From: a bacterium
GTDB taxonomy: Bacteria > Zhuqueibacterota > Zhuqueibacteria > Zhuqueibacterales > Zhuqueibacteraceae
Length of the DNA stretch: 64,000 bases
Direction of reading: 5' to 3'
Assembly (NCBI GenBank): GCA_022072515.1
Contig: JAJVHT010000069.1
Location: 30,910-94,909 of the forward strand
The notes beneath the pieces were generated by a model that searched no databases, had not been told where the DNA came from, and saw nothing but the letters and a program-made list of their open reading frames with translations. A program made the position numbers and the translations under genes. Shown piece after piece: positions 12,072-58,786 of this stretch (position 1 is its first letter; every line of letters begins with the position of its first letter).

Positions 12072-13538
12072 TTAAGCCGCCAAACTCGTTGCCGGGGCTC
12101 GCACCGCCTCGCGCCGTTTCACAAACTCGAGCAGTGCGAGCAGCGGCCCGGTCATAAATGTCGTCACCAGCGCCATGAGCACCATCATGGCAAAAACGCG
12201 CGGGGAAAGAATCCCCATATCGTATCCAAGGTTGAGCACGATCAACTCCATCAAGCCGCGGGTATTCATCAGCACGCCGATGGATAACGCATCATGCCAG
12301 CTCATGCCGGTCCACCGGGCCGCCAACGCGCTGACGCCTAATTTTCCGGCAATGGCGATTGCAATAATGCCCGCGCCCAGCAACCAACTCTGCCAGTCAT
12401 TCAGCAAGCCAATCTGAGTGCGTAACCCGGTGAAGGCAAAAAACAGCGGCAGCAGAAAGACCGCGCTGAACGTTTCAAGACGCTCGCGGAGAAACAGCCG
12501 CAAACTTGCGTGTTGGGGCATGGCCACGCCGGCGAGAAAAGCGCCGAACAGCGCATGAATACCGATCACTTCGGTGAACAACGCTGCCGCAAAGACAAAT
12601 ATTAAAACGCTGGCGACAACGCCCTTGCCCAACGGCGCATTCTGCGCTTTTGTATCCATAAGACGGCCAGCACTGGGCTTGACGAAAAGCAGCATGATGC
12701 CAATAAAACCCAGCGACAGTGAAATCGTCAGCACGGCCCCGCTCAAGCCGGAGGCTTTGGCAATGGCGACCACGACAGCGAGAAGGCACCAAGCCGTCAC
12801 GTCATCCACCGCCGCGCACGCGATGGCGGTGCTGCCAAGATACGATTTCGCCAAACCGCGCTCTTCGATGATGCGGGCCAGCACCGGAAACGCCGTAATA
12901 CTCATCGCAATTCCGATAAACAGCGCAAATGCGATGAAGGAAACATGCGGAGCTGCCAAAAAATTGTATACCAGCAGTGAGAATGCCACACCGAGAAAAA
13001 ACGGCACCACGATACTAACATGACTCACCAACACCGCGGCGTGCGCTTTTTGGCGCAGGTACTGCAAATTCAATTCAATCCCGACAACGAACATAAACAG
13101 AATCACGCCAATCTGACTGAGCAACCTTAAGGCGCCCATCGAAGCCTCGGGAAAGAGAAAAGCTTCCATTCCCGGCGACAGCATCCCGAGCAAAGAAGGG
13201 CCGAGCAAAATACCGGCAATCATCTCGCCGATTACAGCCGGTTGCCCAATTTTTTGGAAAAGCGCTCCGAACAATCTTGCCGCGGCGATAATCACAATGA
13301 TTTGCAAGAGCAAAATGCTCAACGGATGGTGCAGATTGTCGAGTAAACCTTTGAACAAGTGGCTTGCCGGTGTTTCCGATTGCTGTAATGGCGTCGGCGT
13401 TGTTTCCTGTGAAGGAACGATTCTTTTATATGGGAACGTCTGGCCGGGATGCAGGCGCGAACCGACTTCCAATATAAAGGAAATACCGACTCCAAAGATG
13501 ATGATCAGAACGCCATACACCAACAAATTCTTGCGCAT
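12072..13538 (-). CDS. Cation:proton antiporter (CPA2 / Na_H_Exchanger family)
   Basis: 488 aa, about 12 hydrophobic segments, family-typical GEMIAGILLGPSLLG near the N-terminus. No KTN/TrkA domain. Confidence 0.75.
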   Translation of the reverse strand: MRKNLLVYGVLIIIFGVGISFILEVGSRLHPGQTFPYKRIVPSQETTPTPLQQSETPASHLFKGLLDNLHHPLSILLLQIIVIIAAARLFGALFQKIGQPAVIGEMIAGILLGPSLLGMLSPGMEAFLFPEASMGALRLLSQIGVILFMFVVGIELNLQYLRQKAHAAVLVSHVSIVVPFFLGVAFSLLVYNFLAAPHVSFIAFALFIGIAMSITAFPVLARIIEERGLAKSYLGSTAIACAAVDDVTAWCLLAVVVAIAKASGLSGAVLTISLSLGFIGIMLLFVKPSAGRLMDTKAQNAPLGKGVVASVLIFVFAAALFTEVIGIHALFGAFLAGVAMPQHASLRLFLRERLETFSAVFLLPLFFAFTGLRTQIGLLNDWQSWLLGAGIIAIAIAGKLGVSALAARWTGMSWHDALSIGVLMNTRGLMELIVLNLGYDMGILSPRVFAMMVLMALVTTFMTGPLLALLEFVKRREAVRAPATSLAA

Positions 13539-15218: not shown

Positions 15219-16259
15219 TTATGCCGCTTTATATCCGCGCACGAAACTATTCACGCCGTAAACTGACATCGCACTGGAGACGATATTGCTGAAACCCGCT
15301 TCCGCCAACCAGCGTTTGCTGTCGCTCATCGTATGGTTCTTGCCGTGTTTTGTCGTGCAGAGCAAATCCAGATCGATGAAGACGGCCCAACGCCCGCCTA
15401 GGCGGTTTTCCTGCAAGTGTTGTGACTGGATGACGACGGAGCCGCCGGGATTGAGTGCTTCATGCAAACGCGCCAGGAGCCGCCGGCGTGTCGCCTCATC
15501 GAAAATGTGCAGCAGATTCGAGGCGAGAATCAAATCGTACGATCCGGGAATATCGTCGCGCACCGCATCGAACGGCAAATAGTGCACTTCATTTTGCAAT
15601 GGATACTTTGCCTGAATTTCTTTGGCCACGTCCAGAACGCCGGCATTATCCATCAGATAAAGCTGCAAATCCGGATTGCGCATTCCCAACATAAACGCAT
15701 ACGTGCCCGAGCCGCAGCCCAAATCCAACAAAGTTTTGCAGCCGCGCGTGTCCAGATAGTGCGCCAGCTCTTTGCCGCGCAATGACGCGTAGTTGTGCAT
15801 GGCCAGCGTGTAAGTGCGCGTGAGATTGGGGTCGACGCCGAGATAATCGGCCTGGTCGGCCGTGGGTTCGGAGCTGAGCACGGCTTCATCAAGGCGGAAG
15901 ATGGCCGTGCAAAATTCTTTCTGCAGGCGAATCCAATTGCCGAGGTAATTATCGCCGGCGGACGGCAACAACACAGACCGGCATGCTGGTGCGGCCCGAA
16001 AGCTGGTGCCGTCTTCGGTTTCAAGCAGCTTCAGCACGACGCCGGCATTTAACAAACGCACCAAAGATTCCGGCCGCGCTTTGATTTCTGCCGCCAGCGC
16101 TTGCACCGTCTTGCTGTCATCGCCGAGGCGCTCGAAAATTTCCAGTTTGAGCAGCGCGAACAGAACGCTGGACTGATAAAAGCCTTCGGCGATGGTCAGC
16201 ACCTGAATTTGATCTTTGATGATCGAGGTGCGGTTCGAGGTTGTCGGTGGTTGCGCCAT
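15219..16259 (-). CDS. SAM-dependent O-methyltransferase (class I, with N-terminal dimerisation-type domain)
   Basis: Motif I is LLDLGCGSGTYAFML, with a helical N-terminal domain typical of small-molecule OMTs. The track ORF extends to 16334, but that overlaps the upstream gene by 71 nt. The internal ATG at 16259 (MAQPPTTS) leaves a 4-nt gap after the upstream stop. Confidence 0.75.
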   Translation of the reverse strand: MAQPPTTSNRTSIIKDQIQVLTIAEGFYQSSVLFALLKLEIFERLGDDSKTVQALAAEIKARPESLVRLLNAGVVLKLLETEDGTSFRAAPACRSVLLPSAGDNYLGNWIRLQKEFCTAIFRLDEAVLSSEPTADQADYLGVDPNLTRTYTLAMHNYASLRGKELAHYLDTRGCKTLLDLGCGSGTYAFMLGMRNPDLQLYLMDNAGVLDVAKEIQAKYPLQNEVHYLPFDAVRDDIPGSYDLILASNLLHIFDEATRRRLLARLHEALNPGGSVVIQSQHLQENRLGGRWAVFIDLDLLCTTKHGKNHTMSDSKRWLAEAGFSNIVSSAMSVYGVNSFVRGYKAA

Positions 16260-16263
16260 AATT

Positions 16264-16857
16264 TTAGAATTGATAGCCGAATTTTTCAATATCAGTTTGA
16301 AACCAGCGCCCGACGATTGCAAGCGAGGCGTCATTGTAGTACTGCCGATAGTCGCCGCGGTCGGATTTCTTCAAATGCGGCAACTCGGCCTCCCGGTTGA
16401 GCAGCAAACAAATTTTCGCGAAATCGGCCTGCAGATTCTCAAATCTGCCGATGAAATTAACCGCCTGCTTGCCGTTCTCGTCGATCAGCCAATGCCATTG
16501 CGGCATGAACATCTTGGGTTTGTTATAATACTCCGGCGCATTATCGCCGTAGGCCAATTTCACCCACTCATTAAAATCGACGGCCTTCGTTCCCAATGCG
16601 GTTTGGTTCGTCATGACGCGGTAATGATAATGCGACACCACGCGATCCCAGGGATTTCTGACGATTGCGAAGCTGAACAATTTTTTCCACGTGTCTTTGC
16701 CCAGCTCGGATATTTTCTCCAAAGCCGTCCGGTGTCCGAAATTCAATCCCAAGGCCTGCTCGATGCTGCTGCCGCCGGTCTTGTTGATATGAATAAAGAA
16801 AAATCCCCGTTGCACCGCCAGCGGGCGGCGCCGGCGGCCTTCTCCGATCTCGTTCAT
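16264..16857 (-). CDS. Sulfotransferase (family-2-like)
   Basis: 197 aa. FFFIHINKTGGSSIEQAL is a PAPS 5-prime-phosphosulfate-binding loop; AIVRNPWDRVVSHY is the 3-prime-phosphate-binding motif. ATGA overlap with the upstream gene. Confidence 0.75.
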   Translation of the reverse strand: MNEIGEGRRRRPLAVQRGFFFIHINKTGGSSIEQALGLNFGHRTALEKISELGKDTWKKLFSFAIVRNPWDRVVSHYHYRVMTNQTALGTKAVDFNEWVKLAYGDNAPEYYNKPKMFMPQWHWLIDENGKQAVNFIGRFENLQADFAKICLLLNREAELPHLKKSDRGDYRQYYNDASLAIVGRWFQTDIEKFGYQF

Positions 16858-17936
16858 GAATCCAATCTATCCTCAAAATCAAATTTTTTTGCCATCGTCG
16901 CAATGGATTCAGCTTCAGCGCTCGATAAAACTTTTTTCCAGCCCGCAATGCGTTCGCCAACCGGCAGGCCGCGCCGATGTTTCGCGCTTGACGAGCTGTC
17001 GTCATCAAACACCCGAAAATCGTGTTCGCCAACCGGCGCCACGTTTAGGCGTTGCAGCATTTCCAAAACAACCTGCTCGCGCCGACGGCACAAGTCTTCA
17101 TAACTCACAAAAACGATGCGGGCGCGGTTATCGGCAAAGCTGTGCTGCACAAACTTCTCGGTCAATGCCCAGTAAGCTGTGAGGCGCGTTACCATATCAC
17201 CTTCGTCGTAATGCTTGATCTCCTCACGCCATTGGCCGAAAAAATCGGCGCGCCCATCGTCCGGGTGGAGAAGTTGATTTGCCAAACTCAGATGCTTGAA
17301 CATGCTTCCCCACGGCGTCGTTTTGGCGCTCGCCATCACAGCGCGCGGATCGCGATAAATGTGAATGACCGGCAAGGCGAACGTATTGTGTACAGCCCGC
17401 AGGCAAAGCTGAGCCCGAACACATTTTAAAATGACGCGCGTGCGAAAGCTTTCATCCAGACGGTTGCGATAAATTCGAACCCATCTGCCCGAGAGGGCGG
17501 AATGCAGCGCCAGATCGAAGACGCGGTGCAACGGATGCCCTGCGAGCGTGGGCGCGCCGCAGAAAGGCATATACTGCCATAAAAATCCTTTTTTTCTTTC
17601 AGCCAGATAATTGTCTTGCGCGTAAAGGGCCTTTACTTCCGGCACCTCGGAAAACAGCGGCTCAAAAACCAGTTTGGCGGTGAGCATTTTCGTCAGCGAC
17701 TCTTGCAGCCAGGTCGTGCCGCTGCGCCAAAAACCGCACATGAACAGGCTGTCACGCGGATTGATTTGCGCGGCAACTTGCCGATCAATGTCATAAGAAG
17801 CGGCGGCGGCGCGCAATTTTTTTTCACGGTTTTTTGACGCCGCCGTTGTCGCCGCTTGGGGCTTACCTGAATTCATAAAGTGCTCTGTCTCATTGCAACA
17901 TATCATCCGGAGCGCCGGGAACTTTGTGCTTACCAA
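16854..17936 (-). CDS. Sulfotransferase (P-loop RSGTTW type)
   Basis: CGFWRSGTTWLQESL is the 5-prime PSB loop; HIYRDPRAVMAS is the 3-prime PB motif. The track start at 17936 is TTG. In-frame ATGs at 17906 and 17876 are alternative starts. Confidence 0.75.
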   Translation of the reverse strand: MVSTKFPALRMICCNETEHFMNSGKPQAATTAASKNREKKLRAAAASYDIDRQVAAQINPRDSLFMCGFWRSGTTWLQESLTKMLTAKLVFEPLFSEVPEVKALYAQDNYLAERKKGFLWQYMPFCGAPTLAGHPLHRVFDLALHSALSGRWVRIYRNRLDESFRTRVILKCVRAQLCLRAVHNTFALPVIHIYRDPRAVMASAKTTPWGSMFKHLSLANQLLHPDDGRADFFGQWREEIKHYDEGDMVTRLTAYWALTEKFVQHSFADNRARIVFVSYEDLCRRREQVVLEMLQRLNVAPVGEHDFRVFDDDSSSSAKHRRGLPVGERIAGWKKVLSSAEAESIATMAKKFDFEDRLDS

Positions 17937-17941
17937 AAACT

Positions 17942-18547
17942 TCAGGAAAATTCTTCAATATCACGTATTGAATTATGCGGCGTGTGTTTTTTCTTATCAC
18001 GCACACTTGCTTTATTGGTGTGCGGAAACGGCACGGCCGGAATTTCCTTGTGCAAAAAAGCGCATAATTTCTCCCAGCCATCGCCGTCGGCAAAATTCAT
18101 CACCAGCAGATCATTGGGGCGCTCGCGAAAATATTCCAGCACGTCGCGATTGTGCCGCTCGTATCTTGCGGCATAAATCGTTTCGTTACCGGCCGGATTA
18201 CCGACGCCGTAAATCCATTTTCGCATCGGCGTCTTTGCGGCGCCGAAGTATTTCACCATGCTCGCCACCCAACTTTCCGTCGAGCGCACGGTCAAAATAA
18301 ATTTGCTGCCGGGATATTTTTGATCGAGTTCTCGATAGATAATCGGCCACGGATTGTCACTGAACGCATCGTATTGCTCCACCAATGCAAAAGCGAAGGC
18401 ATAAACTTCCTGCGCAATATACGGATTCTTGTAAACGCTCAGCTCGGCTTTGTTGACGTGATAGCCTAAAATCCGCAGCGCTTTGCTCAGCGACGAGGTG
18501 CCGGTACGATGAAAACCGATGCAGAAAATTTTAAACTGATTCATCAT
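17942..18547 (-). CDS. Sulfotransferase (small, family-4-like)
   Basis: 201 aa. FCIGFHRTGTSSLSKAL is the PSB-type loop. The ATG start directly abuts the TAA stop of the upstream GT2. Confidence 0.65.
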   Translation of the reverse strand: MMNQFKIFCIGFHRTGTSSLSKALRILGYHVNKAELSVYKNPYIAQEVYAFAFALVEQYDAFSDNPWPIIYRELDQKYPGSKFILTVRSTESWVASMVKYFGAAKTPMRKWIYGVGNPAGNETIYAARYERHNRDVLEYFRERPNDLLVMNFADGDGWEKLCAFLHKEIPAVPFPHTNKASVRDKKKHTPHNSIRDIEEFS

Positions 18548-19624
18548 TTATTCATCTTCTTCGCTCGGCAGGGAAAATGGCGCAACCCTGCCGGGCGCTT
18601 TTTTTAAATGGGTCCGGCCATCAGAAGAACGGACGATGGAACGAGCCGAAAAATCAATTTTTTCTTTCTGGGTCAGCCGTTGCCAACCCTGCATCATCGG
18701 CCGGACAATCTTCTGTCCACCCAGCAAGCAGTTGATCATCCGGCGCAGATGGCCCGGCCGCGTCAACGGCGATTGCAATATGCCGGGAAACAAACGAATG
18801 GTTTCAAAACACGCCCGCAGCGCCTGAAAAGTTTTCGCGCTGTGATATTGATCTCTCGCCAATCGCCTTTGCTCCCGGGCCGCAAAAATTCGCTCTGCCA
18901 CTTGCCGCTCTTTGCCGTCCAGTTCCTGAACAGCGCGCTGGCGCATCTTCGTCAAAAGCTTGCGCACTTTCTGCTTGGGAGGGCGCCACTGTCCGCTATG
19001 AACACGCCAGAGGCAAACTGTGCCCGGAACCAATATCACCAAACCCCGCCGCGACAACCGCAGCCACAATTCATGATCCTCGCCAAAACTATAAGTCGTG
19101 TTCCAGCCATGCAGCGATTTGATGGCTGCCGTTAGAAACAAACACCGCGAACAAACCGGCGACCAGCCCAACAAAATATCGGGCCAGAGATTGCGCAAAT
19201 AATGCCGCCGCACGAATTTGCTCGACATTTGCGCGCCATGCTCGTCAAATCTCACAATATTTCCGATTGAAGCAATGGCCGACGGATAACGCGCGAAAGC
19301 ATCAACATGGGTTTGCAATCCCGCCGCGGGCAGCAAATCATCGTCATCTAAAAAGAGAATGAACTTGCCTTGTGCAACGTCAAGGCCGGTATTGCGCGCG
19401 GCCGACCGTTCGGCATGTTGCTCGAGCCGAAGAATCTTGACCCGTTTGTCACCAAGCTGTTGCACGTAGGCAAACGTGTCGTCTTCCGACGCATCATCTA
19501 CGACAACCAGCTCCCACTGCACAAACGTTTGCGCCAAAATGCTGTTAATCGCCTCCGCCAGTAAAACACGGCGATTGCGCGTGGGGATAACAATCGAAAT
19601 CACTGGCGCGTCATTCATGCCCAT
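18548..19624 (-). CDS. Glycosyltransferase family 2
   Basis: 358 aa. ISIVIPTRNRRVLLAEAINSILAQTFVQWELVVVDDASEDDT and FLDDDD (DxD). Confidence 0.85.
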   Translation of the reverse strand: MGMNDAPVISIVIPTRNRRVLLAEAINSILAQTFVQWELVVVDDASEDDTFAYVQQLGDKRVKILRLEQHAERSAARNTGLDVAQGKFILFLDDDDLLPAAGLQTHVDAFARYPSAIASIGNIVRFDEHGAQMSSKFVRRHYLRNLWPDILLGWSPVCSRCLFLTAAIKSLHGWNTTYSFGEDHELWLRLSRRGLVILVPGTVCLWRVHSGQWRPPKQKVRKLLTKMRQRAVQELDGKERQVAERIFAAREQRRLARDQYHSAKTFQALRACFETIRLFPGILQSPLTRPGHLRRMINCLLGGQKIVRPMMQGWQRLTQKEKIDFSARSIVRSSDGRTHLKKAPGRVAPFSLPSEEDE

Positions 19625-19703
19625 CCCTTGATTTTGGGTTTCATACCGGTTGCTCCGTTCGTCTCAAAAAACTGCAAAACAGTCCAACGGCTGTATGGGC
19701 ACT

Positions 19704-20753
19704 TTATTCGCCTGGCGATTCGATCGCGTGCCAACGCGCCTGCGGCTGGACATTCGTGTCGGCGCTGCGCGTGTCCGTCTCGTCGTCGCGATTATCCAGG
19801 CGCAACGACGAAAATTCCAGCGACTTTCTGCCGGGCAGACGTTCGATCACCGGCCGGCCGCCGATCAAACATTTAAGCATTGGCGAAACGAGCATCCTGC
19901 GCGTCACCGGCGACAGCAGCACGCCGGGCAGCAAACGCATTGTCTGGAGATAAGCCTGCAGCGCTTTAGCGGTCTCGCCGGCGGCATAGTGTTTTTCGCC
20001 CGCGCGGAAAAACTCGCGCGCCTGCAAAATTTTTTCCGCCGGCGCACGCTGTTTGGCGTCCAGCTTTTTGATGGCGCGCTTGCGAATCTTCGTCATCAAT
20101 TGCCAAAGTTTGCGCGGCCGCCATTGGCCACCGTGCAGGCGATAGTGCAAAACAATATCCGGCAAAAGCACGATTCGGCCCAATTGCGACAACTTGAGCC
20201 ACAACACATGATCTTCGCAAATGTTGTAGTCCGTATCCCAACCGTGCATGGCTTTGATCACTTGCGTGCGAAACAAACTTTGCCCGGAAACCGGAATATG
20301 GCCGAACAGCAAATCCGGCCAGAGATCATACAATTTTCGCCGCCACCCGTAACGAATGGCTTGCCGGCCGCCATTCTCATCAAACATGATGAAGCTGCCG
20401 GCGGTGCCGGGCGCAACCGGATATTTTTGCAACGCTTCCCAATGCGCTTGCAAAGCCGCGGCGGGCAAGAGATCGTCATCATCAAGAAAAAGAACAAATT
20501 CGCCCTTGGCTGCTTCCAGCCCAAAGTTCCGCGCCTGCGTGCGTTCGCGGTGTTCCTCAAACCGAAAAGGGCGAACCTGGGCGTTTTGTAACCCGCGCAA
20601 CCACGACCACGTCTCGTCCGTCGAGGCGTCATCGATAACGAGCAACTCCCAATTCCGATACGTTTGCGCCAAAACGCTCTCGACGGTTTCCTGCAGCAAA
20701 CGCCGCCGGTTATGGGTTGGAATGATGATCGAGATTGTCGGATTGCGGCTCAT
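19704..20753 (-). CDS. Glycosyltransferase family 2
   Basis: ISIIIPTHNRRRLLQETVESVLAQTYRNWELLVIDDASTDET and FLDDDD. Paralog of 18548-19624. The track ORF (to 20882) overlaps the SHMT gene; ATG 20753 (MSRNPTISIII) fits the family N-terminus. Confidence 0.8.
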   Translation of the reverse strand: MSRNPTISIIIPTHNRRRLLQETVESVLAQTYRNWELLVIDDASTDETWSWLRGLQNAQVRPFRFEEHRERTQARNFGLEAAKGEFVLFLDDDDLLPAAALQAHWEALQKYPVAPGTAGSFIMFDENGGRQAIRYGWRRKLYDLWPDLLFGHIPVSGQSLFRTQVIKAMHGWDTDYNICEDHVLWLKLSQLGRIVLLPDIVLHYRLHGGQWRPRKLWQLMTKIRKRAIKKLDAKQRAPAEKILQAREFFRAGEKHYAAGETAKALQAYLQTMRLLPGVLLSPVTRRMLVSPMLKCLIGGRPVIERLPGRKSLEFSSLRLDNRDDETDTRSADTNVQPQARWHAIESPGE

Positions 20754-20845
20754 TTTAAAACGTTGCGATAAAACGTTTGCCGGTGGACGTGTTTTTAGAT
20801 TAGCGGCTATTGAACTTTGCTTGGCGCCATAACGAAGCAACCGTC

Positions 20846-22186
20846 TCACACCGGATAACAGGGGATCGGAAAACGCGAACACAATTTTTTCACATCCGCG
20901 CGCACGGCATTCCGAACAGTCTCGTCGAGTTTATAGTGGCTCTCATCAATCGCTTTTATGGCGGCCAACACCCGGTGCACGAGATCGGCGCAGGTCGCCA
21001 TTTCGCCCGGCCCCATTTCGCGGCGCGCCAAACTGTTGGTGCCGATGCGAATGCCGCTGGTGATCGTCGGCGATTTCTGGTCGCCGGGAATTCTATTTTT
21101 ATTGACGACGATGTGGCAATCTTCGAGCGCGCGTTCGGCGATGATGCCGGTGAGGCCTTTTTGCAGCACATCGATGACGACGAGATGATTATCGGTGCCG
21201 CCGGTGATGACGCGATAGCCGCGCTCGAGAAAACATTGGGCCAGCGCGCGGCCGTCATCCACAATTCTTTTCGCCAATTTTTTAAATTCCGGACGCGCCA
21301 CCATTCCCAGGGCGCGCGCCATCGCCGCAATCGTGTGCAAATGCGGCGCGCCTTGAAAGAAAGGAAAAACCGCTTTCTGCAATTTTTCCGCCAGCGTCAT
21401 TTTGCCGTCCGGCGCCGGGCGATCAAAATCTTTTCCCATCATGATCAAACCGGCGCGCGGCCCGTAAATCTGCTTGTGCGTGCAGGTCGTCGTGAAATGC
21501 GCGTGATTGATCGGGCTGGGATGCTCGCCGGCGACCACGAGTCCGGAAATGTGCGTGATGTCAGCCAAAACATACGCGCCGACTTCATCGGCAATCTCGC
21601 GAAAGCGCTTGAAATCGATGACGCGCGGATATGAGGTGGTGCCGCAGATAAGCAGCTTGGGTTTGTGCTCGTGCGCCAGCCGCTGCACCTGCTCGTAGTC
21701 AATGCTGCCGGACGGATGCAAGCCATAACCAATCGCATTGAAATACTGGCCGGAAACCGAAGCCTTGGAGCCGTGCGTGAGATGGCCGCCGGAACTAAGC
21801 TCCATGCCCAGCAGCGTATCGCCGGCTTTCATCATGCTGCACATCACGATCTGATTGGCCGTGGTCGCGGAGTGCGCTTGCACATTTGCATACTGCGCGC
21901 CGAAAGCGGCTTTGGCGCGATCAATCGCCAGTTGCTCGATCTCATCGATAACGACGCAGCCGGCGTGAAATCTGGCCTGCGGATAGCCCTCGGCGGTCAC
22001 GTTCATCGGTGTCATGCTTTCACAAATCAACACCGACGGATCGACGACGCTCGAAGCCGCGACCATCGTCAGCACCGTGGTTTGGCGCTCGTGTTCGCGA
22101 TCCAATAAACCATAAAGCTGCGGATCATCTTTTCGCAAAGTTTCAATGCCCTGATGCACGAAACTTTCCAACCGGTTATCATTCAT
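20846..22186 (-). CDS. Serine hydroxymethyltransferase-fold PLP enzyme, divergent paralog
   Basis: 446 aa, collinear with GlyA: AEGYP, EQLAIDRAKAAFGAQYANVQAHS, GGHLTHG, and PLP-Lys motif TTCTHKQIYGPRAG. The canonical IASEN motif reads VAASS. Confidence 0.8.
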   Translation of the reverse strand: MNDNRLESFVHQGIETLRKDDPQLYGLLDREHERQTTVLTMVAASSVVDPSVLICESMTPMNVTAEGYPQARFHAGCVVIDEIEQLAIDRAKAAFGAQYANVQAHSATTANQIVMCSMMKAGDTLLGMELSSGGHLTHGSKASVSGQYFNAIGYGLHPSGSIDYEQVQRLAHEHKPKLLICGTTSYPRVIDFKRFREIADEVGAYVLADITHISGLVVAGEHPSPINHAHFTTTCTHKQIYGPRAGLIMMGKDFDRPAPDGKMTLAEKLQKAVFPFFQGAPHLHTIAAMARALGMVARPEFKKLAKRIVDDGRALAQCFLERGYRVITGGTDNHLVVIDVLQKGLTGIIAERALEDCHIVVNKNRIPGDQKSPTITSGIRIGTNSLARREMGPGEMATCADLVHRVLAAIKAIDESHYKLDETVRNAVRADVKKLCSRFPIPCYPV

Positions 22187-22219
22187 CTTATGTTTTTCTC
22201 CCTTGGCTCAGCTATACCA

Positions 22220-24976
22220 TCACGTCACGATTCCAGCTAACGCCGCTTTTTCCGCCAGCATCGCCTCGATTTGTTCATCCGAAAGCTGGTTGATTTGCAT
22301 CAGCGTGCGCGCAATTTCAACGATATCGATTTCTTCTGCCTGGCCGGCGGCGATGAGGCGCGTAGCAAATTGGGCCACTGTCGGCGCTTCCCAAAACTCA
22401 TGCACCGGCAAGATCACCGGAAAAATATCGCGCAATTGCGCCATAATTTTCGTTGCCATTAACGAGTGGCCGCCCAATTCCAAAAAATTGTCCTGCACGC
22501 CGATCGGCGCGAACGCAAAAACGTCGCTCCAAATTTGCGCCACCACTTCTTCCACCGGATGGCGCGGCGCGACAAACGCCGTCGACAATTCCGGCCGCGA
22601 AAAATCTGGCGCCGGCAGCGCCCGGCGATCAATTTTGCCGTTGGGTGAAAGCGGCAGGGCTTCCAGCAAAACAAAAGCCGTTGGCACCATGTATTCGGGC
22701 AAACATTTGTGCAGATACTCGCGCCACGCCGGCACGAGTTCGTGCGCGGCTTGACCATATTTCGAATCCGGGACAATATAGGCCACAAGACGCTTGCCGC
22801 TTCCGACTTGATCGGGCTTTTCATCTTTCGCAACGACCACCGCTTCTTTGACGGCGGGATGCTTGGCCAACGCCGAGATAATTTCACCAAGCTCGATGCG
22901 ATAGCCGCGAATCTTCACTTGAAAATCCATGCGACCGAGCAGCTCGAGATTGCCGTCCCGCACCGCCGGGTGGCGTGCGAGGTCGCCGGTTTTGTACATG
23001 CGGTCGCCGGCAATGCCGCTGAACGGATTGGGAATAAATTTCTCCGCTGTCAACTCCGGGCGATTCCAATAACCGCGGCCCACGCCGATGCCGCCGAGAT
23101 GCAATTCACACGGCACGCCGACTGGAACCGGCTGCAGATATTTATCCAACACGTAAGCGAGCTGATTCGCCATCGGCACGCCGTAAGGAATACTTTTCCA
23201 TGCCGACGAGGCGTCCACGATATCGTAAATAGTGGAATCCATCGACACTTCGGTCGCACCGCCCATGCTGACCACGTGCACGCCGGGAATCAAACTTTTG
23301 AGGCGATCCGGCAAACTCACCGGAATCCAATCCCCGCCGAGCAAAGCTAGGCGCAACAAGCGTGGCGTGAGGCCGGGATGATCGCTGCAATGATTCACCA
23401 GCATCTCGAGCAGCGCCGGCACCGAATGCCAAACCGTGATGTCGTGATGCACCATTAACTCCGCCCAACGGCCCGGCTCCAAAATGGCGGGGGCTGCAAC
23501 GATGACGATCGTGCCGCCGGTCAGCAGCGTGCCGAAAATATCGTACGCCGACATGTCGAAACTCAGCGAAGCCAAGCCGAGCAGGCGATCATTGGCGCCA
23601 ATCGCGTAGCGCCGGTTGAAATCACAAAAATTGCTGACGCGGCCACGATGGTTGAGCACGGCGCCCTTGGGACGGCCGGTCGAGCCCGAGGTGTAAATCA
23701 CATAGGCGAGATGCGCGGGCGTGACGCTGCTGTGCGGATTCACGGCGCTTTCCGGCGCGATCGTTTCTGCAATTTGATCCAGGCAGATTAATTTAAAATT
23801 CGCCGTGGCAAAATTTAAATTTGCACGCAACGAGGTTTCCGTCAACAAAACCTGCACCTGCGTATCTTCCAGCATAAACGCCAATCGTGATGCCGGATAT
23901 GAAGGATCCAACGGCACGTAAGCGCCGCCGGCTTTGAGTATGCCATAGAGGCCGATCACCATTTCGAGCGAACGGTTCATGTAAACCCCGACAAGCGTAT
24001 CCGGCCCCACGCCCAACTTTTGTAAATAATGCGCCAGTTTATTGGCGCGGCGATTCAACTCACCGTAAGTGAGTTGCGCGTCTGCGAAAACGACGGCAAT
24101 CTTATCCGGCAAACTCTCCGCTTGCGCCTCAAAGAGATGATGCAGACATGCATCAGAGGGAAACGGCGCCTCCGTCGCATTCCACTTTCTCACAATCTGC
24201 TGCCATTCTTCATCCGGCAAAATCTGCAGCAAGGCGATTCGCGTGTCCGGATTGGCAACCGCGCCGTGCAGCAAGGCCTGGTAGTGCCCGGCCATGCGTG
24301 TGATCGTCGCAGCGTCAAACAAATCGGCGTTGTAAGTGATGACGCCTTCGCAGCCTTGCGGGCCGTCAACTATTGCGAAGTCCACCTCGAACTTGGCGAG
24401 TTCATCATTCGCTGGCGTCCCATCGGCGCCAGTGTAATCAGTTACGCCATTTTTAAAAGCAAAGGCCGATTGAAAAAGACGGCTCGGGTCACGCTGCGGG
24501 TAAAGCTCGTGGGCCAGTTGCGCCAACGGCAGCGCTGCGTGCGCTCGTGCTGCGTGTAAGATTCCGCGCACGCGGTTGAGCAACTCGCGAAAGGTCGGAT
24601 TGCCGCTTAGATCCACGCGCAACGGCAGTGTATTCGCGATCGTCGCGGCCGTAACCAGGTCATTTTGGCCCGAGTAACGCTGCAATAAAATTTGATAGGC
24701 GGCAAACAAGCCTTCAAAAAGGGTGGCGGCTTCCTCGCCACACAACCGGAGTAGTCCTTCCCTCGCGATGGGAGAAAGCGCGAACCGCTGGCTTTCACGC
24801 CGGTAAGTTGGCACGGCGGGACGGGCGCGGTCCGTGGGCAGTTCCAACGCCGGCGGGTTTTCACCCAACTGCTTTTTCCAGTAAGCGCGCGAGGTATGCA
24901 ACGCTTCACCTTGCAACCAATTTTCCGGCACCGCCGCCTGCTTTTCAGCTGGGGGTCTCATGTTGCGCGTGCTCAT
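22220..24976 (-). CDS. Non-ribosomal peptide synthetase module: remnant C domain - A - T (PCP)
   Basis: 918 aa. The N-terminal ~255 aa match only the C-terminal half of a condensation domain (YWKKQLGENPPALELPTDRARP onward; no HHxxxDG). A domain: LTYGELNRRANKLA, AYVIYTSGSTGRPKGA, SLSFDMSAYDIFG, SMGGATE, ELHLGGIGVGRGYWNRPELTAEKF, YKTGDLAR, GRMDFQVKIRGYRIELGEI, NGKIDRRAL. PCP: FLELGGHSLMATKIM. Confidence 0.9.
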   Translation of the reverse strand: MSTRNMRPPAEKQAAVPENWLQGEALHTSRAYWKKQLGENPPALELPTDRARPAVPTYRRESQRFALSPIAREGLLRLCGEEAATLFEGLFAAYQILLQRYSGQNDLVTAATIANTLPLRVDLSGNPTFRELLNRVRGILHAARAHAALPLAQLAHELYPQRDPSRLFQSAFAFKNGVTDYTGADGTPANDELAKFEVDFAIVDGPQGCEGVITYNADLFDAATITRMAGHYQALLHGAVANPDTRIALLQILPDEEWQQIVRKWNATEAPFPSDACLHHLFEAQAESLPDKIAVVFADAQLTYGELNRRANKLAHYLQKLGVGPDTLVGVYMNRSLEMVIGLYGILKAGGAYVPLDPSYPASRLAFMLEDTQVQVLLTETSLRANLNFATANFKLICLDQIAETIAPESAVNPHSSVTPAHLAYVIYTSGSTGRPKGAVLNHRGRVSNFCDFNRRYAIGANDRLLGLASLSFDMSAYDIFGTLLTGGTIVIVAAPAILEPGRWAELMVHHDITVWHSVPALLEMLVNHCSDHPGLTPRLLRLALLGGDWIPVSLPDRLKSLIPGVHVVSMGGATEVSMDSTIYDIVDASSAWKSIPYGVPMANQLAYVLDKYLQPVPVGVPCELHLGGIGVGRGYWNRPELTAEKFIPNPFSGIAGDRMYKTGDLARHPAVRDGNLELLGRMDFQVKIRGYRIELGEIISALAKHPAVKEAVVVAKDEKPDQVGSGKRLVAYIVPDSKYGQAAHELVPAWREYLHKCLPEYMVPTAFVLLEALPLSPNGKIDRRALPAPDFSRPELSTAFVAPRHPVEEVVAQIWSDVFAFAPIGVQDNFLELGGHSLMATKIMAQLRDIFPVILPVHEFWEAPTVAQFATRLIAAGQAEEIDIVEIARTLMQINQLSDEQIEAMLAEKAALAGIVT

Positions 24977-25668
24977 ATCAATTCATAACCAAAAAACTTA
25001 AGAACGTCTTCATGCTCTTGGAGAACCGCGTTGATGCGATCGATATCCGTTCGCCGCAAACGGCCGATTTTTTCATGATTAAAATTTTGAATCGTTTCGT
25101 CGCTTGCATGCGCGGCAAAGGATTGCGTGATGTCAATATCCTGCAAGGCCGGCATAAAGTTCAGAATCTGTTTTTTAATTTGCGGGGTTTGTTCGGTAAA
25201 GCGTTCATATGTAAAATGCGTCAGCTTTTTTAAGCCTGTAATATTTTTGATTTGATAGGCCGCGTGCGCAATCCATTTGCCTGCAGAAATTTGAACATCG
25301 TGATCGAGCCGCCGGCGGTGGCTTTCACAAAAGGCATACGGATTTCTGATCATCGCCACAAAAGCCGCCGGCTGAAAAACTTTTTCGATCTCAAAAGCGC
25401 GCGCGATGTTCGGCGGACTTTTTTCCAGCAAAATCGGCTTATGCAAATCCCAATGCTTTTCCCAGGTCGCTTTAATCTGAAGCCACGGCAGACGCTTCCC
25501 GGGATTCCACGGCTCGGTGCGCATGAATTCTCTCACGCCCTCCAGCGCCTGGCCCTCATACGGCAGCGACGACACGGCCGGCGAAGTGCCAAGCAATTTC
25601 CACAGGACCGTCGATCCGGAAAAAGGCGGGCAGAGAACAAATAAATATTCATGCGCCATAACTGCCAT
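24973..25668 (-). CDS. Sulfotransferase
   Basis: LCPPFSGSTVLWKLL is a PSB-type loop; AMIRNPYAFCES is the 3-prime PB motif. ATGA overlap with the NRPS start. The track start 25734 is TTG and would run through the 25714-25753 hairpin. ATGs at 25668 and 25659 are more plausible. Confidence 0.65.
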   Translation of the reverse strand: MAVMAHEYLFVLCPPFSGSTVLWKLLGTSPAVSSLPYEGQALEGVREFMRTEPWNPGKRLPWLQIKATWEKHWDLHKPILLEKSPPNIARAFEIEKVFQPAAFVAMIRNPYAFCESHRRRLDHDVQISAGKWIAHAAYQIKNITGLKKLTHFTYERFTEQTPQIKKQILNFMPALQDIDITQSFAAHASDETIQNFNHEKIGRLRRTDIDRINAVLQEHEDVLKFFGYELI

Positions 25669-25700: not shown

Positions 25701-25753
25701 GTAAAAAGTCGTGCGTAAAACGTAACACGCGCAAAGACGTGTTACGTTTTACG
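25701..25753 (-). terminator. Perfect 15-bp inverted repeat hairpin (possible intrinsic terminator or attenuator after the protease gene)
   Basis: cgtaaaacgtaacac (25714-25728), a 10-nt loop, then gtgttacgttttacg (25739-25753). On the minus strand the stem is followed, after 6 nt, by TTTTT. It starts 15 nt downstream of the protease stop. Confidence 0.45.
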
Positions 25754-25768
25754 TGTTGCCTGTTTTCC

Positions 25769-27623: not shown

Positions 27624-28400
27624 TTAAATTTGAGTGCCACATCCGTTAGTTAAAACATCCTGCCGCAACTGGCCGCACACCGCCTGCAGCAGCGACAAGC
27701 GCGAAGCCTTAAGAAAAAAATGGTCGCCTTCAAACATGTTCAGCGAGAAGGCATTGCCGGTCTGCTGGCGCCACGCTTCCAAATGCGTCCGCGGCGAACT
27801 GTGATCCTGCAATCCGCCAAAACAAGAAATCGGGAAATCGAATGGCGCTTCGTCGTCGTAGACATAGGTATCGCTCATCGCAAAATCCGCCCGTAAAGCC
27901 GGCAGCAACAGCGCCAGCATCTCCGCATTTTCCAAAATCTCGCGCGGAATGCCCTTGTAACGAACGCTGACTTCCTGCACGAAATCATCATCCGGCAAAT
28001 GCTGCAGCGGCGGATGGGGATCGGGAATCTGCGGCGCGCGCGAGCCGGAGACGAACAGGCGCAGCGGCTGTGCGTCATTTTGCCGGCGCAATTGGCGGCT
28101 CAATTCAAAGGCGGTGATCGCACCGAGGCTATGGCCGAAAAAAGCAAACGGCTTGTCGAGGGCCGTCGCGAGGATTGGCGCCAAGGCTTCGCACAGCGCG
28201 TCCAGCTTCGTGAACGGTGTTTCTTGCAAGCGCGCTTCCCGCCCCGGCAACTGCACCGCAACAATTTCCACTTCCGGCGGCACACTCAACGCCCACGTCC
28301 GATATTCAAATGCGCCGCCACCCGCGTACGGAAAGCAGAACAACCGCACCCGCGCTTGCGGATGCGATTTGGGAATACTGAGCCAGCCGTTGTTCGTCAT
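27624..28400 (-). CDS. Type II thioesterase
   Basis: LFCFPYAGGGAFEYRTW and FFGHSLGA (GxSxG), with a C-terminal GDHFFL. The track start 28439 is TTG; ATG 28400 gives a typical ~259 aa. Confidence 0.85.
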   Translation of the reverse strand: MTNNGWLSIPKSHPQARVRLFCFPYAGGGAFEYRTWALSVPPEVEIVAVQLPGREARLQETPFTKLDALCEALAPILATALDKPFAFFGHSLGAITAFELSRQLRRQNDAQPLRLFVSGSRAPQIPDPHPPLQHLPDDDFVQEVSVRYKGIPREILENAEMLALLLPALRADFAMSDTYVYDDEAPFDFPISCFGGLQDHSSPRTHLEAWRQQTGNAFSLNMFEGDHFFLKASRLSLLQAVCGQLRQDVLTNGCGTQI

Positions 28401-28469
28401 CTTCGTTCGCAAGATTGAATTCGAAATTACACTCTTCAATTCACCCTTTTTACCGCTTGGCCAAAGCGT

Positions 28470-56937: not shown

Positions 56938-57540
56938 TTAAGCAGCAACCGCAACGGCTTGCTGATGCGTGACATGCACGCCGTCGCTGCTGCTTTGAGC
57001 AAGTGGCGCCAAATAGCCCATTTCTTCCAGCTTGCGGACGATCTTCTGCGCGCTTTCAAGCGGCGATTCCTTCTCGGTTTCGCAAATCACTTCCGGATTC
57101 GTCGGCGGCTCATACGGATCGCTGACGCCGGTGAACTCTTTGATCTCGCCGGCCAGCGCTTTTTTGTACAAACCCTTGACGTCCCGCTGAATGCAGGTTT
57201 CGAGCGAGACTTTCACATAAACTTCGACAAAATCCTTAATAAGGGCGCGATTCTCGTCCCGAATATTTTTGTACGGTGAAATCGCCGCCGCAATGGCAAT
57301 GACGCCGTTGCGCGACAACAAATGACAAACGAAGCCGATCCGGCGAATATTTATATCGCGATCTTCCTTGGAAAATCCCAAACCTTTGCTCAAATTCGTG
57401 CGCACGACATCGCCATCGAGAACTTCAACTTTACTCCCACGGGTTTTTAACAACGGGACCAGATGTTCGGTGATCGTCGATTTCCCAGCGCCGGAAAGGC
57501 CGGTAAACCAAATGGTGCAACCGCGAGGTGAATGAGTCAT
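56938..57540 (-). CDS. cysC: Adenylyl-sulfate (APS) kinase
   Basis: [14 protein letters not shown]-loop and LDGDVVR. About 200 aa from ATG 57540 (GGGA 9 nt upstream). The track ORF extends to 57576. Confidence 0.9.
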
Positions 57541-57616
57541 GATAGTATTCCCTTGAGTGTTATGTTTTAAAATCATAAGACGTAATGCATATTTTTATGC
57601 TTTACGTTATTAAGCT

Positions 57617-58786
57617 TTACGAATTACCATTACGCAAGCCTTTGATCAAAATCTCCACGACCTCGGCGCGGCTGAATTCAGGCGGAGGGGCTTCGCCGCG
57701 GCCGAGCATTTCCCGAACCTGGGTGCCGGAGAGTGACACTTGCTGCGCACTGTCATGCGGGCAGGTCTTGTTCGTCACCACCGCGCCGCATTTCTTGCAG
57801 AAAAATGAGTTCTCAAAATTCAACGTCGTGATGCCCAACTCTGCCGGCGTGAAGTTGGTAAACATTTTTTGCGCATCATAAGTGCCGTAATATTTGCCGA
57901 CGCCGGCATGATCGCGGCCAACGATGAAATGCGTGCAGCCATAATTCTTGCGGCACATCGCATGAAAAATCGCTTCGCGCGGGCCGGCATAGCGCATCGC
58001 CGCGGGAAACACGCTCAAGAGCACACGGTTGGCGGGATAATAATTTTTCAGCAGGGCGTGATAACTTTCCATGCGCAATTCTGCCGAAATATCATCGTTT
58101 TTGGTTTTGCCGACGAGCGGATGCAGCAAAAGGCCGTCGACGATTTCCATCGCGCATTTCTGAATATACTCGTGGGCGCGATGGACCGGGTTGCGTGTTT
58201 GAAAACCCACCACCGTGTTCCAGCCGCGCTCGGCAAAAATCTTGCGCGTCTCCGCCGGATCCCGGCGGTATTCAAGAAACGTGCTTTCCGGATGGCGATT
58301 GATCATCCACACCTCGCCGGCCAGGCAAACTTCGCCCTGGCCCATCACGCGCGCCACGCCGGGATGCGCCGTTTCTGCCGTGCGATAAACTTCCATCGCC
58401 TCGCGCGTTTTATTGTACTCGAATTTCTCCACCACCTGCATGACGCCGAGAATTGTGGCGCCGTTGCCGTTTTCCACCAGCGCAATTTCTTCATCGAGCC
58501 GGATGCCGGCGGCAACGTCTTTGGCAACCGGCAAAGTAATCGGCAGCGACCAGACGAGACCGTTGGCGAGCCGCATCGTTTCCACGACGCTGTGATAATC
58601 GGCTTGCGACATAAAGCCGGTGAGCGGGCTCATCGCGCCGTTGGCGATCATTTCGAGATCGGCGACGCCGACTTCAGAAAGCGGAATTTTTTTTGCATCG
58701 CGGGCGCGTTGTAACGCCGCTTCACGTTCTTCACCGCGCAGCATGCGATCCACCAATTTACCGCCGTGAGGTATGTTGAGGGACAT
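57617..58786 (-). CDS. sat: Sulfate adenylyltransferase (ATP sulfurylase)
   Basis: 389 aa. [12 protein letters not shown] and VGRDHAGVG motifs, with an N-terminal PUA-like region. Confidence 0.9.

Follow-up and report, generated by a model that had tools for sequence, protein, structure and literature searches.

In rhizobia, extra sulfate-activation genes feed a glycoconjugate sulfotransferase: NodP and NodQ, which duplicate the assimilatory CysDN and CysC, serve NodH in the sulfation of Nod factors. On a larger scale, the capsular cluster of Vibrio sp. KMM 8419 holds three sulfotransferases, many glycosyltransferases (GTs), ABC-type export and a duplicate cysNDC set; genes for 3'-phosphoadenosine 5'-phosphosulfate (PAPS) together with sulfotransferases are regarded by the authors as a hallmark of sulfated polysaccharide clusters (PMC11641403). 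In Synechocystis PCC 6803 the synechan (xss) cluster, with sulfotransferases and GTs, makes a sulfated extracellular glycan (PMC8205485), and a putative sulfotransferase/GT/PAPS gene cluster has been reported for Pontiella (PMC7356697). We report the computational analysis of a locus from an uncultured bacterium of the candidate phylum KSB1, in which four sulfotransferase genes, here called ST_A to ST_D, are packed together with GT genes, a nonribosomal peptide synthetase (NRPS) module and genes for a halopyrrole. The locus lies in a stretch of 64,000 nucleotides (the window), positions 30910-94909 of contig C1 in a metagenome-assembled genome (MAG) of 231 contigs and 78.6% completeness. Our reading, to which we give a probability of roughly 60%, is that soluble, cytoplasmic, PAPS-dependent sulfotransferases tailor the product or products of this large hybrid locus, which is patchily distributed in KSB1: a cassette containing ST_A, ST_B and ST_C would sulfate the glycosyl part, ST_D would sulfate the amino-acid-derived part, and both would draw on a shared PAPS supply that is used for sulfation only.

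The likeness to the Vibrio cluster lies in the joining of several sulfotransferases and GTs in one large cluster, to which ABC-type export and PAPS genes may also belong; the exporters of the window comprise two ABC_membrane/ABC_tran proteins and one MacB-HlyD-TolC set. The KSB1 locus differs in its four sulfotransferases within the window and 11 on the contig, and in its NRPS module, serine hydroxymethyltransferase (SHMT), halopyrrole genes and aminoglycoside-phosphotransferase-like (APH-like) kinases. Whereas the cysNDC genes of Vibrio are a second copy beside an assimilatory set, sulfate activation in the KSB1 locus is of the Sat type, and searches of the genus found no genes for assimilatory reduction. 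The same difference separates the locus from NodPQ/NodH, with the further one that the linkage of sat/cysC to the sulfotransferases is not conserved. The xss cluster, for its part, follows a Wzx/Wzy-type pathway and is not known to be tied to NRPS or halogenase genes. Sulfated glycans or glycolipids had been called uncommon in bacteria in the initial annotation of this DNA; bacterial clusters in which several sulfotransferases are accompanied by their own PAPS genes have already been described (PMC11641403, PMC8205485). A search of the literature for KSB1 sulfotransferases returned no paper.

Each of the four open reading frames (ORFs) exceeds the gathering threshold of its Pfam family (22 bits for PF03567 and for PF00685, 27 for PF13469 and 22.8 for PF17784; Table 1), in keeping with the earlier assignment of the four to different families, and ST_A to ST_D are classed on these matches as PAPS-dependent sulfotransferases of four Pfam families. 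No NCBIfam model matches any of them. The PAPS loops that had been quoted are present in the translations (NKTGGSS in ST_A, WRSGTTW in ST_B, HRTGTSS in ST_C and PFSGSTV in ST_D), as are the 3'-phosphate motifs (RNPWDRVVS, YRDPRAVMAS, VRSTESWVAS and IRNPYAFCES, in the same order), in which an Arg precedes a Ser or Glu of the next helix. The 5'-phosphosulfate loop (x-K/R-x-G-S/T-S/T) is normal in ST_A, ST_B and ST_C, and ST_D carries a variant without the basic residue. K26, R67 and S75 are invariant in an alignment of 32 ST_A homologues, R195 and S203 in the ST_B family, and E38, K83 and R108 in a 40-member alignment of the ST_D family.

Table 1. Features of the locus, in window coordinates unless a contig is named. 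ST, sulfotransferase; GT2, family-2 glycosyltransferase; aa, amino acids.
Feature	Coordinates	Strand	Description
O-methyltransferase (OMT)	15219-16259	-	PF00891 and dimerisation domain; directly after ST_A
ST_A	16264-16857	-	197 aa; Sulfotransfer_2 (carbohydrate-type), PF03567 51.8 bits
ST_B	16854-17936	-	360 aa; divergent Sulfotransfer_1/_3, PF00685 34.5 bits and PF13469 34.5 bits
ST_C	17942-18547	-	201 aa; Sulfotransfer_4, PF17784 135.5 bits
GT2a	18548-19624	-	GT2 (Pfam); extra copy travelling with the sulfotransferase cassette
GT2b	19704-20882	-	Conserved GT2 of the cluster; true start probably near residue 44
SHMT paralogue	20846-22186	-	Pfam 430.6 bits; NCBIfam NF000586 463.8 bits
NRPS module	22220-24976	-	A and T domains preceded by half a condensation domain (Pfam)
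ST_D	24973-25668	-	231 aa from ATG, stand-alone; Sulfotransfer_3, PF13469 30.1 bits
Hairpin	25711-25756		17-bp perfect palindrome followed by a U-run; z = -2.8
Thioesterase	27624-28439		Separate gene, two genes upstream of ST_D
cysC	56938-57576	-	Adenylyl-sulfate kinase; Pfam 209.7 bits; NF002059 280.7 (cut-off 244)
sat	57617-58786	-	ATP sulfurylase with PUA-like N-terminal domain; Pfam 326.6 bits; NF003166 563.5 (cut-off 387)
Extra sulfotransferases of the contig	starts at about C1:8.6, 15.6, 16.4, 17.3, 20.2, 24.1 and 25.0 kb		

For the two weakest scorers, ST_D and ST_B, AlphaFold2 models were built from alignments of their homologues, and both take the sulfotransferase fold expected of PAPS-binding enzymes. 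The ST_D model has a mean predicted local distance difference test score (pLDDT) of 94.9, and among its 51 Foldseek matches to the PDB at E<=0.001 sulfotransferases hold every rank through 31. For ST_B (pLDDT 92.2) all 50 listed matches are sulfotransferases or retinol dehydratase, itself an enzyme of sulfotransferase fold, at modest TM-scores. A search of the PDB with the single ST_B sequence gave nothing meaningful, and by its model ST_B is a divergent sulfotransferase with insertions. Its family is rare (462 cluster representatives in 1.84 billion proteins), although two paralogues with 47-49% identity lie downstream on the same contig; its TTG start is uncertain and an alternative ATG stands at 17876. 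Hydropathy analysis found no membrane-spanning hydrophobic segment in any of the four proteins, which means that sulfation should be cytoplasmic and precede export. Homologues of ST_A number more than 2000 at about 60% identity, and one of them, from Alteromonas (63% identical), lies in an extracellular polysaccharide (EPS) locus with Wzx, several GTs and two other sulfotransferases; a homologue of ST_C from Anabaena (64% identical) stands beside Wzx, a GT2 and an APS kinase. These settings, both in cultured bacteria, support a sugar acceptor for the two enzymes. Among the genomes of 40 relatives no orthologue of ST_C was found, one genome of the same class giving a weak match (40% identity, E 3.8e-10).

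The most informative result comes from comparison with related clusters, which were found in KSB1 MAGs and metagenome contigs through homologues of ST_D, ST_A and ST_C. These clusters share a backbone at 60-90% identity, made up of MbtH, thioesterase, NRPS, SHMT, GT2, OMT and the prolyl-adenylase and halogenase (halopyrrole) genes, and hold one, two, three or four sulfotransferases. Two of them, L035 and L036 (the latter being contig C47 of genome G013), have ST_D alone, with one GT2 immediately before the OMT; in L038/L039 ST_D is followed by ST_B, GT2 and ST_A; L046 has no ST_D and reads GT2, GT2, ST_C, ST_B; and L047 reads GT2, GT2, ST_C, ST_B, ST_A, OMT, an order identical to that of the window. 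In all homologous clusters the OMT comes next after the variable slot. GT2b is 71% identical to the GT2 of L036 and 78% identical to that of L038 and shares 44% identity with GT2a, which has 46-49% identity with the lone GT2 of the one-sulfotransferase clusters as against 65% with the second GT2 of L046; the GT2a paralogue was seen only together with ST_C. By this comparison of sequences, GT2a with ST_C, ST_B and ST_A (16264-19624) is a tailoring cassette whose content varies while its slot, between GT2b and the OMT, stays the same, and this variation at a fixed position is the best evidence available that the three sulfotransferases act on the product of their own cluster. Since related clusters have zero, two or three sulfotransferases in the slot, a natural variation in the degree of sulfation is implied.

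The genes are tightly spaced within the window. As first described, ST_C, ST_B and ST_A are consecutive and coupled (the ST_B stop and ST_A start overlap by 4 nt and 5 nt separate ST_C from ST_B) and are flanked by two GT2 genes and the OMT; GT2a and ST_C have no gap between them, and from GT2b through ST_A all genes are joined by overlaps or by gaps of 0-79 nt. The overlap of ST_D with the start of the NRPS gene also holds, its stop sharing 4 nt with the NRPS start, and is present in L035 too. Every one of the 46 large ORFs in the window is encoded on the minus strand. The MAG as a whole has at least 19 sulfotransferases, and were 19 spread at random over 4.6 Mb, the Poisson probability of four in 9.4 kb would be about 9e-8 and that of 11 on the source contig about 1e-11. 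Seven of the 11 lie outside the window, downstream and on its coding strand (C1:8.4-25.9 kb), and eight more are on contigs C3, C4, C48, C119 and C205. The region C1:8382-25868 also holds family-4 GTs (GT4s), an epimerase, a polysaccharide deacetylase and an aminotransferase, with a free-standing full condensation domain at C1:9429-11009; an NRPS-like protein of 1136 aa is encoded at C1:1226-4636.

The analysis shows the families and folds of the enzymes, the order and number of the genes and how the clusters differ; acceptor substrates, the order of the steps and any co-regulation are our inference. GT2a would add a further sugar, and ST_A, ST_B and ST_C would sulfate hydroxyls of the glycosyl part before export. 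ST_D would sulfate the amino-acid-derived part, possibly while this is bound to the T domain. The PAPS for these steps would come from Sat and CysC, the pair in the window being one of three sulfation-only sources for the at least 19 sulfotransferases of the genome.

Both sulfate-activation genes exceed their NCBIfam cut-offs, lie on the same strand as the sulfotransferases and head the locus, as had been noted, with the end of cysC 31.3 kb upstream of the ST_D start. In the genus to which the source genome belongs (ORF calls were simple and relatives were sampled at one genome per species), the PAPS_reduct family PF01507, which covers CysH and CysD, has no match in eight of eight genomes, namely the source MAG and seven further species, two of the eight being 99-100% complete; the sulfite reductase family PF01077 (NIR_SIR) has none in the five of five genomes searched. 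Control searches gave matches in 14/14 and 11/14 reference genomes. With neither a (P)APS reductase nor a sulfite reductase matched, sulfate activation in the genus appears to serve sulfation only. The proposed check for an assimilatory set elsewhere, beside which sat/cysC would be a second copy, thus came out negative, and that interpretation was rejected. A survey of KSB1 read sat as assimilatory (PMC9012183), which is probably wrong for the source genus. Genes of the PAP-phosphatase family are present in the genome, none of them on the source contig.

The pair in the window is one of several. Two sat-cysC pairs and a fusion of pyruvate kinase to Sat give the source genome three Sat copies, and Sat occurs in 18 of 18 genomes of the family, mostly in three copies within the genus. 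The second pair (C4:36286-38139) is 78% and 90% identical to that of the window, and in several congeners the other two Sat copies are adjoined by sulfotransferases. The second pair belongs to a further biosynthetic region, C4:4221-45999. Its multi-module NRPS spans C4:4.2-26.3 kb, and besides sat and cysC there are genes for two sulfotransferases and two GT4s, a phosphopantetheinyl transferase, an asparagine synthase, an APH-like kinase, a BNR protein and a TonB receptor. The fusion protein (G000:C3:58191-60392, 733 aa) consists of a pyruvate-kinase barrel, a PUA-like domain and an ATP sulfurylase, and two sulfotransferases follow it at C3:60509-61234 and C3:63045-63707. Open frames of the same Sat type, 730-738 aa in length, are found in the congeners G002, G005, G006 and G007; we know of no described pyruvate kinase-Sat fusion. 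In G007, one frame of 1069 aa (G007:C176:70754-73924) has both Sulfotransfer_3 and ATP-sulfurylase matches, suggesting a sulfotransferase-Sat fusion.

Several points weigh against our reading. The nearest solved relatives of ST_D, and less clearly of ST_C, are activating sulfotransferases, so that one or two sulfates might be only transient. In the ST_D family the 5'-phosphosulfate loop appears from the alignment to be missing its usual basic residue, and activity is accordingly not to be assumed. For ST_A, neither the single sequence nor a 32-sequence profile has a significant solved homologue in the PDB, and its putative sugar specificity is drawn only from Pfam family and gene context. A terminator-like hairpin and 31 kb stand between sat/cysC and ST_D; and at the completeness of the source MAG the missing CysH proves little when taken from that MAG alone, so the argument leans on the congeners. 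The first of these points leads to a different view of the enzymes, in which ST_D, and perhaps ST_C, adds a leaving group rather than a lasting sulfate: ST_D would act on a T-bound beta-hydroxyl, the sulfate being eliminated by the thioesterase or spontaneously as in CurM and the olefin synthase OLS, and the product would bear fewer sulfates than there are sulfotransferases. A profile of 40 ST_D family members finds the sulfotransferase domains of CurM (4gbm, 3.7e-11) and OLS (4gox, 2.3e-10) first in the PDB, with the tyrosylprotein sulfotransferases (TPSTs) next, and in Foldseek the order is TPST2 at the top and CurM and OLS at ranks 3 and 4, with heparan-sulfate 3-O-sulfotransferases also among the best. 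ST_D shares with CurM and OLS the SGST loop core, the lysine of xKSP, the R-x-P-Y 3'-phosphate motif and a physical tie to a thiotemplate module; known members of the CurM-ST/TPST clade use carrier-tethered or polypeptide substrates, which fits the 4-nt overlap with the NRPS gene. The thioesterase two genes upstream, and the SHMT paralogue as a potential source of serine in the same string, also suit such chemistry, and the best PDB match of ST_C is SgdX2 of sungeidine biosynthesis (8y9p, E 1.3e-14), ahead of the schistosome oxamniquine-activating SULT-OR. SgdX2 is termed an activating sulfotransferase by its depositors, judging by the title as cited in PMC11677658. Yet the similarity of ST_C to SgdX2, a Sulfotransfer_4 protein like itself, is distant, and its close homologues (about 60% identity) come from polysaccharide loci, a context indicating a stable sulfate on a glycan and not a leaving group. 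TPSTs, which make stable sulfate esters, score equally by fold. ST_D is a free-standing protein and not part of a carrier-sulfotransferase-thioesterase off-loading tridomain, and it lies upstream of an NRPS rather than a polyketide synthase module. Where the CurM loop reads PRSGST, Phe16 of ST_D aligns with the arginine, and the four commonest residues of that column in the family alignment are Phe (23), Tyr (10), Ala (3) and Leu (1). The otherwise homologous L046 has MbtH, thioesterase, NRPS and SHMT and no ST_D, which is therefore not needed for chain release there. Both the Phe/Tyr loop and the absence from L046 speak against counting ST_D simply among the activating CurM enzymes, and we consider a leaving-group role unlikely. 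More specific, and distinctly speculative, is the idea of a hitherto undescribed, free-standing CurM-like logic on an NRPS module, by which ST_D, with its atypical loop, would sulfate a T-bound serine-type beta-hydroxyl (the serine coming from SHMT), elimination with or without decarboxylation by the thioesterase would leave a dehydro or vinyl terminus, and ST_C, ST_B and ST_A would give a series of differently sulfated glyco-halopyrrole conjugates; we should be surprised if all of it proved right.

Two further alternatives concern the unity of the locus. The sulfotransferases and GT2s might modify a separate surface polysaccharide or glycolipid, with the NRPS and halopyrrole genes mere neighbours and the apparent super-locus a series of adjacent pathways. 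The ordinary EPS loci that hold ST_A and ST_C homologues elsewhere would agree with this, as would the many additional GTs, the polysaccharide deacetylase, the epimerase and the seven more sulfotransferases of the contig, and the position of the locus head (sat/cysC and TolC/HlyD/MacB) on another contig in G013. Against it, the cassette always occupies one slot, from SHMT/GT2 to OMT/prolyl-adenylase, with overlaps or gaps of 0-5 nt, and the string from the kinases to the downstream GT4, sulfotransferase and epimerase is collinear across two genera: C47 of G013, which belongs to genus g4, matches the window through the GT28-like genes, kinases, NRPS/ST_D, halopyrrole genes, MBOAT-SGNH and these downstream genes. 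Nor do the Wzx, Wzy or Wza families occur among the Pfam matches of the window ORFs, and we regard a chance assembly of neighbours as doubtful. A supply strictly dedicated to the locus, sat/cysC having co-evolved with the four sulfotransferases in the manner of NodPQ and NodH, is more doubtful still. It would accord with the shared strand, the lack of opposing genes over the 31 kb between them, the absence of any visible assimilatory use of PAPS in the genus and the published view of in-cluster PAPS genes as a hallmark of sulfated-glycan clusters (PMC11641403). But the orthologous pair heads the same block in G002, where the order aspS, sat, cysC, DUF5666, TolC, HlyD, MacB, GTs, kinases and ABC exporters is kept at 60-90% identity (sat stands next to aspS in G005 as well) and no ST_C, ST_D or Sulfotransfer_2 match was found in the genome. 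The ST_D-bearing cluster of G013 is on C47 with sat/cysC on C13 and C113, and in the source genome both the second pair and the fusion are closer to other sulfotransferases. The hairpin preceding ST_D speaks against it too. An exclusive service of sat/cysC to the four sulfotransferases was rejected on the G002 gene order and the contig split in G013. Of the dedicated supply first proposed there remains the lack of any visible assimilatory use; the three Sat copies, the G002 pair without ST_A, ST_C and ST_D, and the separation in G013 tell against the rest, and to judge from these gene contents the pair in the window looks like part of a genome-wide sulfation supply that is not private to the pathway.

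Returning to the reading of sulfotransferases as tailoring enzymes of one hybrid locus, several neighbouring features bear on the string that ST_D leads. The hairpin lies in the 100-nt gap between a secreted peptidase gene and ST_D, could serve the string as a terminator or attenuator in front of it, and has a counterpart of different sequence at the matching position in L035; the genes from ST_D to the OMT may thus be transcribed as a separate unit. A TTG at 25734 was rejected as the ST_D start, since the frame would cross the 17-bp hairpin and homologues start near the ATG at 25668. ST_D-family proteins with the PP[F/Y]SGST loop, which lacks the basic residue, occur in KSB1, Salinibacter, Halioglobus, Electrothrix and others. 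The half condensation domain of the NRPS is kept at full length in homologues, by which its decay as a peculiarity of the source genome was ruled out; the protein measures 918-928 aa in the window and L038 and 1310-1404 aa in L035, L036 and L046, which have a methyltransferase insert between the A and T domains. The cluster SHMT is 84-90% identical in all homologous clusters and 41% identical to a second SHMT on contig C63, and a supply of serine by the in-cluster copy is plausible. Between the prolyl-adenylase and the halogenases, a membrane protein of the Na+/H+-exchanger family (12072-13538) is encoded, and L038 has it in the same place with 83% identity.

A multiply sulfated, glycosylated product, as initially proposed, is likely from the gene content: genuine sulfotransferases are packed with GTs, and homologues of ST_A and ST_C belong to polysaccharide loci. 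The proposal stands with the reservation that sulfotransferases and sulfates may differ in number. What is new in this system is the number and diversity of its sulfotransferases, their modular gain and loss in a cluster of hybrid NRPS/halopyrrole/glyco type, the synthesis of PAPS in a genus without visible means to reduce it, and an atypical, NRPS-coupled ST_D. There is demand for regiospecific carbohydrate sulfotransferases in the preparation of sulfated glycans, and clusters of the same backbone with one to four sulfotransferases form a natural comparison series that offers a direct route to the site of each enzyme.

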